Source: an uncultured Candidatus Saccharibacteria bacterium (lineage in GTDB: Bacteria > Patescibacteriota > UBA1384 > XYA2-FULL-43-10 > 1-14-0-10-43-13). Taken from it: a stretch of 64,000 nt of DNA. The stretch lies in NCBI GenBank assembly GCA_964364265.1, contig CAYILA010000001.1, positions 6,808 to 70,807 on the forward strand, written 5' to 3'. The first letter of the stretch is position 1. The number at the start of each line of letters is the position of its first letter. This document shows, one piece after another, positions 3,654 to 40,230 of this stretch. The notes beneath the pieces were generated by a model that saw only the letters and a program-made list of their open reading frames with translations, searched no databases and was not told the origin of the DNA. The translations under genes were made by a program, and so were the position numbers.

Positions 3654-4640
3654 ATGAAAAAAAGATTTCCGCAAAAATCGCTTGAAGCGAGGGTTTTGGG
3701 GAGTATTTTGTCGTACCAATTAATTCAATCTACGGATCATATCATTGTCGCCGTCAGCGGGGGAGCGGACTCGGTTTGTCTTCTGCATTTATTAAATAAT
3801 TTAAAAGACGAATTAAAGATCACTCTTTCGGCTTGTCATTTCAACCATAAACTGCGCGGAAAAGAAAGCGACAAGGATCAAAAATTCGTCGAGGATTTGT
3901 GTAAAGAGAAGGGGATTGCGTTAATTCTGGGAGAGGGCGAAAAAGGCGAAGATTTAAAAAGCGAAGAAAAAGCCAGAGATGCCCGTTACCGATTTTTTAA
4001 AAAATTGATAGGGGAGAAAAGGGGAGTAAAAATCGCACTGGGACATAATTCTAATGATTTATCGGAAACTCTCATCTTCCGCCTGGCTCGGGGAAGCGGA
4101 ATGCTCGGACTTTCGGGGATCCCTATCTCGCGGGAAAATTTTATCCGTCCCCTACTCTATATTCCACGCATGGAAATTGAAAAATTCCTTAAAAATCACG
4201 ATTTAGGATTTAAAACCGATAGAACCAATTTTGAGACCAAATATTCCAGAAATTTAATTCGGCTGAAAGTTTTGCCTGTGCTTGCAGAAATTAATCTTTC
4301 AGTTGTCTCCACTATCGCCCAAGAATCAAAGAATATCAGCCAGGATATTACTTACTTGAGGAAGATGGCGGAGGAGAGTTTTGAAAAAATCGCGATATTA
4401 GAAAATCAAAACAAGATTGTCCTGGATCAAAAAAAGTGGTTAAAACTTGATCCCTCGCTTCAGCGCAATACCATCATTCTGGCGATTGAAAAAATCAGCT
4501 CCAAAACCGATATTACCTCGGTTCAAATCGAGGAAGTCCTTTCCTTAATTTCGAGAAATATCGGAAAAAAATATAAATCTCTCCCCCACTCGTTGCGCGT
4601 CACGCTTCAAAATGGTAAAATTAGTTGTGCTAGAAATTAA
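3654..4640 (+). CDS. tilS: tRNA(Ile)-lysidine synthetase
   Basis: The PP-loop motif AVSGGADSVCLLHLL (SGGxDS) lies in an N-type ATP pyrophosphatase domain. The conserved tilS-ftsH linkage is present. Confidence 0.85.
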   Translation: MKKRFPQKSLEARVLGSILSYQLIQSTDHIIVAVSGGADSVCLLHLLNNLKDELKITLSACHFNHKLRGKESDKDQKFVEDLCKEKGIALILGEGEKGEDLKSEEKARDARYRFFKKLIGEKRGVKIALGHNSNDLSETLIFRLARGSGMLGLSGIPISRENFIRPLLYIPRMEIEKFLKNHDLGFKTDRTNFETKYSRNLIRLKVLPVLAEINLSVVSTIAQESKNISQDITYLRKMAEESFEKIAILENQNKIVLDQKKWLKLDPSLQRNTIILAIEKISSKTDITSVQIEEVLSLISRNIGKKYKSLPHSLRVTLQNGKISCARN

Positions 4641-6499: not shown

Positions 6500-8113
6500 A
6501 TGAAAAGAATTACAAAATATTTCAGTCAGGAGAATTCAGTCCGCGGCGCTTCTTTACTGTTGATTGTAACATTGGCAATCAGCAATATGTTGGGATTGCT
6601 TCGGGACAGATTTTTAGCAAAAAACCTCTCGTTCTCCGATCTTGATATTTATTTTGCCTCTTTTAGGGTCTCCGACACCCTGTTCAATTTTTTGATTTTA
6701 GGAGCTCTTGTTTCGGCCTTTCTGCCGATTTTTACCGATTTTACGACCTCAAGAAGAACTGAAGAGGGTTTTAAACTTGCCAGTATTATGATCAATAGCT
6801 CGGCAATTATCATGTCGCTGACGGCCGTCATCTTTTATTTTATTATGCCTTCGGTGGTCGGCATTATCGTCCCGAATTTCGAATCAGCAAGATTCAACGA
6901 AACGGTTGCTTATTCGCGTCTCCTAATGATTACTCCGATTTTCTTTTCTGTCGCCTATGTCATCGGCGGCATTTTAAATTCCTATAAAAGATTTTTCGCC
7001 TATTCACTCTCCCCTCTTCTTTACAATCTTTCAATCATTGTCGGAGCGGTCTTTTTAGCTCCGAGATACGGAATTACCGGAGTCGTTTACTCGGTGATTG
7101 CCGGTTCGTTTCTTTATTTTCTAATCCTAATTCCGGCTCTTATAAAAATTGATTTTAAGTACTATTTCATCTTAAGGCCGAAAGACGAAACCATTAAAAG
7201 AATTACCAGATTAATGATTCCAAGAAGCGTCAGTCTAGGCGCTAGCCAGATTCTTTTTACCGTTTTCACTTCGATCGGTTCAACCATTTCGGTCGGCGCA
7301 ATTGCCGCCCTCAACTTTGCCAATAATATCCAGACCGTGCCGGTTGTCATACTTGGAAATTCATTTGCTACAGCTGTATTCCCAGTGCTGGCAAAAAAGA
7401 TTTCCGAGGGCGACAATGAAGGATTCTCGTTCTATCTAAATAGAGCAATCCGTGCGATTGGTTTCCTGATGATTCCTTCTTCGATGGTGATGATATTGCT
7501 TCGGGCCCAAATTGTCCGTCTGATTATCGGAACCGGCAAAGTCGATTGGGACGATACCAAGATGACGGCGCTCGCTTTGGGATTCTTTGCCGTTTCCTTG
7601 ATCTCCCAAGGGTTAATTCCCCTGCTGGCGCGGGCTTTCTTTGCTCTGAAAAATACCAGATTGCCGATGTATTCGACCATTATTTCGGTTATTGTCAGTA
7701 TAATTTTTGCCTACCCCTTGGCGTCCAATTATTCAATCGTTGGTTTGGCGTTGGCATTTTCAATCGGAAGCTTTGTCCAGATGTTTATCCTGTTTTATTC
7801 CCTGCTTACCAAATACCCGAGTGTTTTCAATCCAAAATTAGTAGGCGCTTACTTAAAAATTCTGGTCATTTCCCTTCTAATGGCCTTAGCTACCTGGGGA
7901 ACGATGCACGGCATGGCTGGGATTGTAGATATGTCCCGATATTGGGGAGTCCTCACGCAGGTTTTGGTTTCTTGTGTTGCAGCGATAATAGTTTACCTTG
8001 GTATAAACTTTCTAATAGGCAGCGAAGAGATTAAGTGGGCTTTTAAAAGAAGGATAAACGGCGGTGATGAAGGTTCCGATAGAACAAAATCTGGAGCAGA
8101 AAAAAGAAAATAA
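6500..8113 (+). CDS. murJ: lipid II flippase MurJ (MviN family)
   Basis: A polytopic membrane protein of about 14 TMs whose N-terminus reads LLGLLRDRFLA, typical of MurJ/MviN. Confidence 0.8.
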   Translation: MKRITKYFSQENSVRGASLLLIVTLAISNMLGLLRDRFLAKNLSFSDLDIYFASFRVSDTLFNFLILGALVSAFLPIFTDFTTSRRTEEGFKLASIMINSSAIIMSLTAVIFYFIMPSVVGIIVPNFESARFNETVAYSRLLMITPIFFSVAYVIGGILNSYKRFFAYSLSPLLYNLSIIVGAVFLAPRYGITGVVYSVIAGSFLYFLILIPALIKIDFKYYFILRPKDETIKRITRLMIPRSVSLGASQILFTVFTSIGSTISVGAIAALNFANNIQTVPVVILGNSFATAVFPVLAKKISEGDNEGFSFYLNRAIRAIGFLMIPSSMVMILLRAQIVRLIIGTGKVDWDDTKMTALALGFFAVSLISQGLIPLLARAFFALKNTRLPMYSTIISVIVSIIFAYPLASNYSIVGLALAFSIGSFVQMFILFYSLLTKYPSVFNPKLVGAYLKILVISLLMALATWGTMHGMAGIVDMSRYWGVLTQVLVSCVAAIIVYLGINFLIGSEEIKWAFKRRINGGDEGSDRTKSGAEKRK

Positions 8114-39080: not shown

Positions 39081-39404
39081 TTATAGCCGGGATATATACA
39101 TAATTTCCAGAATGAGGATCAGAAACGCCAAGAAAATGTTGGCCGAGAAAAAGAGGTAGCTGATTTTCTTCTCTTTGTCGAAAGAGGAAACACCGAGGAT
39201 AAAATTGACGACATAGACGATTAATAGGAATTTAATCGGTGAAACCGGAATAATCCAATTACTTTGGGTTTCCATCCATCTTATTTTCATAATCCAAATC
39301 AGATAATCAAGACCAAAAACCGCGATTGAGGCGACCAGCAAATAGAGATCGATATGATCGAAAACCAAGGCGTTTTTCAATAAATTTAATAATGATTTCA
39401 TATT
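39081..39404 (-). CDS. small membrane protein (3 TM)
   Basis: The ORF is trimmed to start at MKSLLNLL so that it does not overlap tRNA-Gln. Confidence 0.35.
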   Translation of the reverse strand, partial: NMKSLLNLLKNALVFDHIDLYLLVASIAVFGLDYLIWIMKIRWMETQSNWIIPVSPIKFLLIVYVVNFILGVSSFDKEKKISYLFFSANIFLAFLILILEIMYISRL

Positions 39405-39407
39405 TTG

Positions 39408-39482
39408 TGGTTCCGAGGCATGGACTCGAACCATGATTCACGGCTTCAAAGGCCGCTGTCCTGCCATTAGACGACCTCGGAA
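39408..39482 (-). tRNA. tRNA-Gln (anticodon TTG)
   Basis: The reverse complement tccgagg tc gtc taatggcagga cag c ggcct TTTGaag ccgtg aatca tggttcgagtccatg cctcgga a cca folds as a cloverleaf. The anticodon is TTG. Confidence 0.8.
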
Positions 39483-39581
39483 TACTTATATTACTCTACT
39501 ATATTTAAGCTCGTTTATCAATCGGAAGAGGGGAAAAATTGAATTATCGAGCTCAAAATGATATAGTATTTAAGGTCATAC

Positions 39582-39777
39582 GCAGGTGTGGTTTAGCGGT
39601 AAAATGCGTCCTTCTTTCACCCTCCGTAGCGGTTCCAAGGGCGAGTGTAGTTTAGTGGCAGAATGCGACCTTCCCAAGGTTGAGGCGGGAGTTCGATTCT
39701 CCTCACTCGCTCCAGAATTGCTACTGCGGAGGACGGGCAAGGATGAGTCGCGGGTTCGATTCCCGTTACCTGCTCCA
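39582..39777 (+). tRNA. split/interrupted Gly-family tRNA-like gene whose halves (39582-39611 and 39741-39777) bracket tRNA-Gly(CCC)
   Basis: The 5' half reads gcaggtg tg gttt agcggtaa aaat g cgtcc. The 3' half reads ggatg agtc gcggg ttcgatt cccgt tacctgc t cca, with ggacg as an alternative stem start. The acceptor stem pairs at 7/7, and cgtcc pairs with ggatg or ggacg. The T-loop is canonical, and CCA is encoded. Confidence 0.4.
39641..39714 (+). tRNA. tRNA-Gly (anticodon CCC)
   Basis: gcgagtg ta gttt agtggca gaat g cgacc ttCCCaa ggttg aggc gggag ttcgatt ctcct cactcgc t cca, with a 4-nt variable loop. Confidence 0.85.
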
Positions 39778-39778
39778 T

Positions 39779-39854
39779 GCCAATGTAGCTCAGTTGGTAG
39801 AGCGGCACTTTCGTAAAGTGAAGGTCGTGGGTTCGAATCCCGCCATTGGCTCCA
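39779..39854 (+). tRNA. tRNA-Thr (anticodon CGT)
   Basis: gccaatg ta gctc agttggta gagc g gcact ttCGTaa agtga aggtc gtggg ttcgaat cccgc cattggc t cca. Confidence 0.85.
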
Positions 39855-39873
39855 TATTTAAATAAATGACCGG

Positions 39874-40230
39874 TCAGCCGGTCTTTCTTGTTTTAATCCA
39901 GTTAATTAAATCGAAGGATATTATTAAAACAATCAAAGGGAAAACAACAATAATTAATTTATTATAATTGTAGGCGTCAACCATATTTCCGTGCATTACT
40001 GCCGAAACGGCGTGGGTGATGCCGCAGCCGGGACAGTTGTAGCGCTGGCCGAAAAGAAGGGGGAAAATAAAATTTTTAAAGATACAAATACCGCCAACCG
40101 GCCCCAATTTTTCAGTCGGCAATATCGTAAGAATAATTAGAAAGAAAGAAAAAACAACCACCCTGGCCCGGGATGAGCCCAGGGTGATCGCATCTCTCGT
40201 AAAAGAAAATAATTCTTTTCTTATTCCCAT
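39874..40230 (-). CDS. DUF2752-like membrane protein (CPGCG motif)
   Basis: CPGCGITHA matches the CPxCGxTR motif of DUF2752, flanked by TMs. Confidence 0.55.
   Translation of the reverse strand: MGIRKELFSFTRDAITLGSSRARVVVFSFFLIILTILPTEKLGPVGGICIFKNFIFPLLFGQRYNCPGCGITHAVSAVMHGNMVDAYNYNKLIIVVFPLIVLIISFDLINWIKTRKTG

Follow-up and report, generated by a model that had tools for sequence, protein, structure and literature searches.

To our knowledge, what breaks up a bacterial tRNA gene is either a self-splicing intron or a large integrating element that splits it. Genomic islands that target tRNA genes copy only the portion beyond the crossover on the 3′ side, reconstituting a hybrid gene at attL, and the disrupted tRNA genes of archaea include those with bulge-helix-bulge (BHB) introns, split tRNAs, and a tRNA-Trp whose intron encodes a C/D box RNA. 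Rickettsia palindromic elements (RPEs), repetitive extragenic palindromes (REP/REPIN) and miniature inverted-repeat transposable elements (MITEs) are short, non-coding, hairpin-forming and multi-copy, are tolerated in frame within protein-coding genes, and fall into lineage-specific families; MITEs mobilized by DDE transposases leave a target-site duplication of fixed length. The tRNA-dependent lysogeny of actinobacteriophages involves a whole prophage, a tyrosine integrase and attP/attB sites (Guerrero-Bustamante & Hatfull 2024, PMC10865867), and tRNA genes of Patescibacteria hold group I introns at 35/36, and standard tRNA finders miss the interrupted genes (Nakagawa et al. 2026, PMC13011429). 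Here we describe a locus in a 64-kb stretch of Candidatus Saccharibacteria DNA (the window; GC content ~42%) where an intact tRNA-Gly(CCC) gene lies within a second, split tRNA-Gly gene. Comparison with other genomes makes it probable that a small mobile cassette disabled the resident tRNA-Gly and replaced it, using its promoter.

An intact tRNA-Gly gene interrupts the anticodon loop of another

The nested arrangement, first noticed in a reading made without database searches (the sequence-only reading), is real. Both ARAGORN and Rfam recognize the intact 74-nt inner tRNA-Gly(CCC) described there, and every tRNA element assigned to the outer gene was found in its proposed position. The outer 5′ half consists of the acceptor strand GCAGGTG (39582-39588), a D arm, the anticodon-stem strand CGTCC (39607-39611) and the loop bases TTCT. 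The 3′ half consists of CAA, GGATG, the variable loop AGTC, the T arm GCGGG/TTCGATT/CCCGT, the acceptor strand TACCTGC (39768-39774), a discriminator T and CCA (39775-39777) (Table 1). The two acceptor strands do pair at 7/7 positions, one of them a G-U pair. Two strands had been considered for the 3′ side of the anticodon stem: GGATG (39741-39745) is the correct one, and ggacg (39731-39735) lies in the 3′ arm of an inserted hairpin. A 4-nt variable loop (AGTC) had likewise been offered beside a longer variable arm, and only the former stood, as orthologues read CGTCC TTCCCAA GGATG AGTC. We rejected a CGTCC/GGACG stem with a long variable arm, since orthologues show GGATG followed by AGTC and the comparison locus L010 (comparison loci carry L-numbers) is unable to form it. 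The halves are indeed about 120 nt apart, with the break, earlier placed at 39611 and 39731/39741, now sharpened to 39615/39738.

The insert (39616-39737) comprises 122 nt, 74 nt of tRNA and 48 nt of other sequence, falls exactly between anticodon positions 35 and 36 (the 35/36 site), and encodes no open reading frame (ORF). In the minimum-free-energy fold of 39582-39777, the outer gene forms a cloverleaf whose anticodon arm extends as a long helix capped by the inner tRNA. As it stands, the outer gene is called neither by ARAGORN, with or without its intron mode (-i), nor by Rfam. After in silico deletion of 39616-39737, ARAGORN calls a 74-nt tRNA, with the anticodon CTC because position 35 is T, so that running this program bore out the outer gene only with the insert removed. 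The architecture is not a product of chance, because the spliced outer sequence resembles functional solo genes and the arrangement recurs at L006/L011, L010 and another 11 metagenome loci.

The region had also been presumed to form one transcript. This agrees with the single promoter-like site, which is the sole plus-strand match from the tRNA-Gln gene to the terminator, and with the single terminator. As these are the only such signals, the inner tRNA and the tRNA-Thr, which does start 1 nt after the outer CCA, would be transcribed through the outer 5′ half.

The split gene is the resident tRNA-Gly and is decaying

Orthologous loci were fetched via homologues of the neighboring GT2 gene. At the same place, upstream of tRNA-Thr, L002/L003, L132 and L133 carry an uninterrupted outer-type tRNA-Gly(CCC) that reads CGTCC or TGTCC, TTCCCAA, GGATG or GGATA, and AGTC. 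L005 and L134 carry a solo inner-type tRNA-Gly(CCC) 1-2 nt before tRNA-Thr, and L006/L011 carry a nest identical in arrangement to that of the window. The Gly-Thr adjacency is common to L002, L005, L006 and L134. The spliced outer sequence of the window is 92% identical to the functional solo tRNA-Gly(CCC) of L132 and 84% identical to that of L002; for the solo outer-type genes next to the GT2 cluster in L002, L132 and L133 the range is 82-92%. Because relatives carry the uninterrupted version at the same place before tRNA-Thr, the outer gene is, on these alignments, the native resident tRNA-Gly(CCC), and the earlier assignment to the Gly family was correct.

Three explanations had been offered for the nest, and the data support the one in which a tRNA gene was disrupted by a segment bearing tRNA-Gly. 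Two features expected of a pseudogene made by insertion were found together, an uninterrupted orthologue in place and relaxed constraint on the split copy. The junction reads TTCC, insert, CAA in L006 and TTCT, insert in the window, where the C found at position 35 in relatives has become T. G19 and T54/T55 are lost in L006, and the outer copies of L075, L092, L096 and L110 bear truncations and insertions.

The tRNA-Gln(TTG) gene lies on the strand opposite to Gly-Thr in the window and L006 and on the same strand in L002 and L005; this small inversion is common to the window and L006, both nest carriers. Apparently functional tRNAs at L002:3391-3464 and L005:3427-3577 have the T loop TCCGATT/TCCGAAT, with C for the usual T at position 55.

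Inner genes are more alike than their surroundings

Between the window and L006, the inner tRNA is identical at 74/74 positions and the arms at 32/33, the linkers are about 70% identical, the outer halves 82-90% and tRNA-Thr 80%, and the flanking DNA cannot be aligned. Across seven related genomes, identity is 93-100% for inner-type Gly, 81-92% for outer-type Gly, 75-96% for tRNA-Thr and 64-74% for the GT2 protein, an unusually high identity of the inner allele for genomes so diverged. The inner tRNA of the window is 93-95% identical to the solo genes of L005 and L134, and 77% identical to the outer gene that surrounds it. Similarly, the inner tRNA of L110 is the tRNA of L122, and the L110 host is different and degenerate. 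Given near-identical inner-type genes in genomes whose GT2 proteins are only 64-74% identical, and the common cargo of L110 and L122, the pattern would fit an incoming allele that recently replaced residents, and would fit local duplication less well. On these figures, the outer gene of the window would have been inactivated not long ago.

Nested tRNA-Gly genes were found at 14 independent loci (window, L006, L010, L028, L049, L074, L075, L082, L092, L096, L110, L118, L120 and L122). Among the matches listed, the link between cargo and site is exclusive: the cargo is tRNA-Gly in 14/14, and the host is tRNA-Gly, entered at the 35/36 site in sense orientation, in 14/14. CCC cargo occurs in CCC hosts and UCC cargo in UCC hosts, the sole unclear case being L096. 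When the insert is removed in silico, ARAGORN recognizes the outer gene in 7/12 loci, and the spliced outer sequence is a perfect tRNA-Gly in L010, L082, L118 and L120. The outer gene is unrecognizable in the other five (L006, L075, L092, L096 and L110), through loop changes, truncations or further insertions.

Some loci are stacked more deeply. L028 holds a four-layer tRNA-Gly(UCC) stack (reverse strand, 602-985) in which the innermost copy alone is intact and the main arm family alternates with a second (GTGAGCCTGCCATGGCCTGA ... GCGATGGCGGGCAGG); the 3′ half of its outermost layer has apparently given way to a different small palindrome (GGCAGGCCCGCCTGCC). In L074, three layers occur together with a third arm family. 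L122:495-860 consists of identical nested units in unequal number (two 5′ and three 3′), with CCA only on the outermost 3′ half, and may be either a real asymmetric structure or an assembly loop.

The inner tRNA sits in a widespread palindromic hairpin

A metagenome scan with the exact 19-mer TGCTACTGCGGAGGACGGG, the 3′ arm, matched at least 120 contigs, against a rough chance expectation of <10. A genome scan with the 3′ flank found L010, a locus in a Saccharimonas metagenome-assembled genome (MAG), where the flanks are the same and the site is again 35/36, yet both tRNAs differ from those of the window and have A73 rather than U73. In most of the listed matches, the 5′ flank TCCAYCCTCCGTAG stands only 3-12 nt upstream of the 19-mer, which identifies the two ‘flanks’ as arms of one compact hairpin. 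The listed matches hold 124 unique copies: 96 compact hairpins (55 of exactly 36 nt), ~9 with a 76-80-nt AT-rich non-tRNA cargo, a few nested in other hairpins, and the 14 tRNA-bearing loci.

The compact form, 36-45 nt long, folds at -20.7 kcal/mol (z = -4.6, range -4.6 to -4.8), and its 5′ arm is near-invariant among copies, unpaired bases included, on host contigs that span 30-67% GC. It has the features of a palindromic repeat, being a short, non-coding, inverted-repeat hairpin in many copies. Rfam gave no match for the arms in the window region and 10 compact-hairpin loci, only tRNA and sub-threshold chance hits, and plasmid, phage and IMG/VR collections gave no match to the hairpin. No further copies of the arms were found in the window. 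There, the predicted fold joins a portion of the 5′ linker to the 3′ linker plus the opening bases of the 3′ arm; in most loci the linkers joining arms to inner tRNA pair no better than shuffled linkers.

Compact copies sit between genes or in frame within protein genes, and none of the 96 interrupts a tRNA. The genes entered in frame encode LarC (Ni_insertion), a squalene/phytoene synthase (SQS_PSY), a GT4/GT1 glycosyltransferase and a class-III aminotransferase (L015:~400-470, L079:~7180-7230, L081:~3764-3810 and L095:~340-390); the hairpin occurs there in either orientation, and one Pfam domain extends across the insertion. It is translated as STLRSSATAEDG, PVLRSSTATEGG or PSSAVALLRR according to strand and frame, 4/6 frames being open. 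Since real genes carry it in frame and it is translated with them, the hairpin acts like inserted DNA that stays in the transcripts.

Its target preference is weak, with C at +1 in 95/113 copies, a purine at +2 and G depleted upstream, and pairing between its two flanks is not general. Direct repeats of ≥7 nt at variable offsets flank 25% of compact copies and 6% of controls, with offsets of 9-17 nt in the clearest single-copy contexts. There is no target-site duplication at the tRNA junctions, and none of fixed length was found for the hairpin. Clustering of ORFs of ≥90 aa within ~5 kb of the at least 120 loci gave no enriched protein family, transposase or integrase; the largest cluster consists of generic histidine kinases or of pseudo-ORFs reading through the hairpin.

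The AT-rich cargo (76-80 nt; L042, L047/L130, L048/L126, L069, L091/L072, L094) constitutes a second class in the hairpin tip, close in length to the tRNA plus linkers and poorly conserved except for extended arms GTAGCAGTAG...CTACTGCTAC. A similar but distinct GTAG-containing hairpin family (CGTAGCC-RTAG-GCTACTAYGGCGGAG) adjoins the element at L049:10434, L063:1300, L089:73 and L113:6177, and in L049 lies within its 5′ arm, which hints that such palindromes form a broader superfamily whose members enter each other. In L038, L029, L106 and L119, the element sits within a swapped-termini variant (CCCGTCCTC ... CGTAGCAGTACTGCGGAGGGTGGA), and L083 shows the reverse case, with that variant in the element's tip. 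One subfamily of the hairpin is embedded in a larger low-complexity repeat (…CAAATCCAAAATCC…; L021, L062, L070, L097, L098, L105 and others), where an 11-nt direct repeat CAAATCCAAAA abuts both sides; L098 has two copies 150 nt apart.

That the hairpin takes other inserts in its tip raises a rival to a mobile cargo: a compact hairpin landed in the anticodon loop and the host gene was then duplicated into its tip, for example during repair of the cleaved hairpin, so that the cargo was never mobile and nests arise in place. The constant match between cargo and host isoacceptor, the 99-100% identity of inner and outer copies in L122, and the variable direct repeats beside some compact copies all agree with such an origin. 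However, the window inner gene is only 77% like its outer gene while matching the L006 inner gene at 100% and the L005/L134 solos at 93-95% in genomes with 64-74% GT2 identity, L110 holds the L122 cargo in an unrelated degenerate host, and the cargo tRNAs of the window, L006 and L110 group across genomes, apart from their own hosts. The required intermediate, a cargo-less hairpin in a tRNA gene, was seen in 0/96 cases. We therefore regard local origin as unlikely, though the least unlikely of the rivals considered here.

The insert lacks the features of an intron

Group I introns have a P1-P9 core (RF00028), measure ~200 nt or more, follow a 5′ exon that ends in U, and themselves end in G. Of these features, the insert has the terminal G. 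The last base of the 5′ exon, however, is C35 in L006, L010 and most of the other loci; the T of the window is derived and alters the anticodon. With cmscan at E up to 10 over 39380-39900, the insert gave no match to a group I or II intron, ribozyme or small RNA, nor did the compact hairpins. A group I intron was rejected on three counts: no RF00028-type hit, an insert of 122 nt of which 74 nt are tRNA, and a 5′ exon that mostly ends in C.

The predicted folds of the junctions also lack a BHB (3-nt bulge, 4 bp, 3-nt bulge), showing instead either a 4x3 internal loop and a 2-3 bp helix separated by a mismatch from a 10-bp stem, or one 3-nt bulge after a stem of 6-7 bp. A spliced or split tRNA of the archaeal type was rejected for want of this motif, and because 5/12 outer genes are unrecognizable after in silico splicing and that of the window reads CTC. 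A permuted tRNA was rejected as well, the halves standing in normal order (39582-39615, then 39738-39777). The sequence-only reading had entertained a permuted or split tRNA, which the normal order and the one promoter-to-terminator unit argue against, and a spliced intervening sequence that encodes a tRNA, which finds no support given the missing ribozyme and BHB signatures, the decay of outer copies and the absence of cargo-less hairpins from tRNA genes.

In another version, the insert would be a true intervening sequence cut at the 35/36 site and religated by a novel bacterial activity, either an endonuclease with an RtcB-type ligase or self-cleavage, so that both tRNAs are made. The perfect spliced tRNA-Gly of four loci would speak for this, as would the invariable sense insertion at exactly one site, the highly conserved arms, and the self-splicing group I introns that Patescibacteria have at 35/36 of other tRNAs (PMC13011429). 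Yet the non-tRNA part of the insert is only 48 nt and matches no group I, group II or self-cleaving ribozyme, the junctions lack BHB geometry, the 5′ exon ends in C in L006 and L010 where group I introns need U, and 5/12 outer genes are degenerate, with the window product placing a CTC anticodon on a Gly body. If the hairpin could be spliced, cargo-less copies would be expected in tRNA genes, where 0/96 occur, and the same hairpin is translated in frame, in both orientations, in protein genes. Splicing of the outer tRNA is unlikely, and we consider this version of it very improbable.

A proposed disrupt-and-replace cassette

We propose that the starting state was an ordinary tRNA-Gly(CCC)-tRNA-Thr(CGT) operon. 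A cassette of 122 nt, consisting of the hairpin arms TCCAYCCTCCGTAG and TGCTACTGCGGAGGACGGG, short linkers and a complete tRNA-Gly(CCC) in the apical loop, would have entered the resident tRNA-Gly at the exact junction of anticodon nucleotides 35 and 36, destroying that gene and leaving the inner gene to take over. The cassette would be mobile as a unit. The inner gene would be transcribed from the outer promoter, in a precursor that runs through the outer 5′ half, arm, inner tRNA, arm, outer 3′ half and tRNA-Thr, and from which RNase P and 3′ trimming presumably release the inner tRNA; the strongly pairing arms would hold the similar outer halves away from it. We take the inner tRNA to be processed and functional and the outer RNA to stay unspliced, its halves being a relic that is decaying or lost. 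Since an intact 35/36 site would survive only in the innermost tRNA, repeated invasion would build nested stacks. Recombination between nested direct repeats could then resolve a nest to a solo gene with the native downstream junction. The absence of the A5 unit from L074 agrees with this, as do the solo inner-type genes found in L005 and L134.

Several points weigh against the cassette. No transposase, integrase or other associated protein family was found near the hairpin loci, mobility is read from comparison, and the weak target preference of the hairpin leaves the confinement of cargo copies to tRNA-Gly unexplained. The near-identity of inner and outer copies in L122 also fits local duplication, and the contig itself is a possible assembly loop. 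The exact 19-mer search accounts for part of the conservation seen in the 3′ arm, and a second tRNA-Gly(CCC) gene may lie outside the 64 kb in view. Finally, the inverted tRNA-Gln common to the window and L006 hints at a single ancestral insertion; outer halves that are 82-90% identical and arms that are 97% identical would then mean selection on the outer structure, not recent insertion.

Such selection is the substance of another alternative, in which outer halves and arms are kept as a scaffold for the inner tRNA and tRNA-Thr, steering how they fold and how they are processed by RNase P or at the 3′ end. The window and L006 agree in CCA, the discriminator and all 14 bases of the acceptor stem, stem changes keep pairing (C27-G43 to T-A, G49-U to A-U) with the changes mainly in the D and T loops, and the arms are nearly identical though the flanking DNA cannot be aligned; the operon spacing of 1-3 nt between tRNAs also suggests that RNase P, in cleaving the following tRNA, defines the 3′ end of the one before. 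Against this, the T-A anticodon-stem variant is also present in the functional L133 solo gene and may predate the insertion, outer halves elsewhere carry deletions and insertions, and linkers pair no better than shuffled ones in most loci. At 86% identity, the outer gene has diverged no less than functional orthologues have (tRNA-Thr 80%, outer-type solos 81-92%), so that recent inactivation explains the similarity of the outer genes. A structural role is unneeded, and the degenerate outer genes elsewhere argue against it; we hold it to be unlikely, slightly more so than a local origin.

Assembly is a further concern, as repeated tRNA-Gly sequences might be mis-joined in a metagenome. A Logan contig of the same organism, L001, breaks inside the inner tRNA (window ~39679), and the repeat units of L122 are unequal in number. 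The architecture nonetheless appears with lineage-specific substitutions in independent NCBI, ENA, JGI and GTDB assemblies and in distant lineages, including the Saccharimonas MAG, which makes an artifact scarcely credible. Short-read assemblies probably break at the near-repeat that the inner and outer 5′ halves form, as at the end of L001.

Features of the locus

ARAGORN and Rfam find 14 tRNAs in the window, all of which encode CCA. RuvAB and QueH are encoded near the locus, and the adjoining gene encodes the GT2 protein, which carries a Patescibacteria annotation. A mechanically called 117-aa ORF (39081-39434, minus strand) overlaps tRNA-Gln by 27 nt; the gene call in the public contig is 106 aa, and the true start is probably further downstream.

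Table 1. Coordinates of the nested tRNA-Gly locus and its neighbors in the window
Feature	Position	Strand	Evidence or remark
tRNA-Gln	39408-39481	-	ARAGORN, Rfam
Promoter-like site TTGAAT-17-TATAGT, TG before the -10 hexamer	39539-39567	+	Consensus match only; 15 nt 5′ of outer tRNA
Outer tRNA-Gly 5′ half, positions 1-35	39582-39615	+	Fold, ARAGORN after insert removal, orthologue alignment
Hairpin element 5′ arm TTCACCCTCCGTAG (family consensus TCCAYCCTCCGTAG)	39616-39629	+	Pairs with 39719-39737 in predicted fold
5′ linker CGGTTCCAAGG, arm to inner tRNA	39630-39640	+	Sequence differs among loci
Inner intact tRNA-Gly(CCC), CCA encoded	39641-39714	+	ARAGORN; Rfam, 62.3 bits; presumed functional gene
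3′ linker GAAT	39715-39718	+	Sequence, alignment
Hairpin element 3′ arm TGCTACTGCGGAGGACGGG	39719-39737	+	Single occurrence in window; identical in L006 and L010
Outer tRNA-Gly 3′ half, positions 36-76	39738-39777	+	Sequence, fold, ARAGORN after insert removal, alignment
tRNA-Thr(CGT), 1 nt 3′ of outer CCA, same transcription unit	39779-39854	+	ARAGORN, Rfam
Terminator-like hairpin GACCGGTCAGCCGGTC (39868-39883), then T-rich tail	39868-39893	+	Sequence pattern

Implications and comparison with known systems

Here one tRNA gene interrupts another of its own kind, and does so time and again across many lineages. We found no description of tRNA genes nested in tRNA genes in literature searched by sequence, encoded peptide and topic, and the arrangement appears to be previously undescribed. 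With confidence evenly divided, we suggest that these loci represent a new class of minimal (~120 nt), protein-less mobile cassettes, or ‘selfish tRNA genes’, that would home to the 35/36 site of tRNA-Gly, knock out and substitute the resident, spread between diverged Patescibacteria and build nested stacks, with arms drawn from a 36-nt palindrome that is shared across very different GC contents and enters protein genes in frame. For annotation, split copies and hairpin alike escape standard tools, and the hairpin adds 12 codons to real proteins. For the evolution of minimal genomes, an essential single-copy tRNA allele would be replaceable horizontally through a nested intermediate. A 36-nt hairpin conserved over hosts of 30-67% GC, with no known mover enzyme, demands a mechanism, and the system is experimentally tractable, given the 300-nt scale of the transcript and the metagenomic population data.

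Among known elements, the closest type is that of RPEs, REP/REPINs and MITEs, a comparison made by description, not by sequence: the hairpin is likewise short, multi-copy and found in frame. Unlike these, it is near-identical over hosts of 30-67% GC and can measure just 36 nt, some copies hold a tRNA in the tip and are confined to one site of one tRNA family, and no fixed target-site duplication was found. With the disrupted tRNAs of archaea, the nests share a break in the anticodon region, pairing flanks and an insert that encodes another functional RNA. They differ in their bacterial host, the absence of a BHB and of evidence of splicing, and the pseudogene-like state of the split gene.

The closest positional parallel is that of the group I introns of Patescibacteria (PMC13011429), which occupy the same unusual anticodon-loop position in the same phylum; the nests, by contrast, lack a ribozyme core, have tRNA-Gly with C35 as their host, enclose a tRNA and leave a split gene that decays. 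Genomic islands share a tRNA target and carried tRNA sequence that preserves function, whereas the nests deliver a complete, independent tRNA, show no junction duplication and leave the host gene split. The marks of an integrative element (integrase, attL/attR, multi-kb length) are missing from a 122-nt insert with no ORF and no match in phage, plasmid or IMG/VR collections. Closest in logic is the tRNA-dependent lysogeny of actinobacteriophages (PMC10865867), which likewise disrupts a tRNA gene and replaces it; here the same logic would be carried out by 122 nt and no protein, at exactly the 35/36 site, from the host promoter and with recursive stacking.

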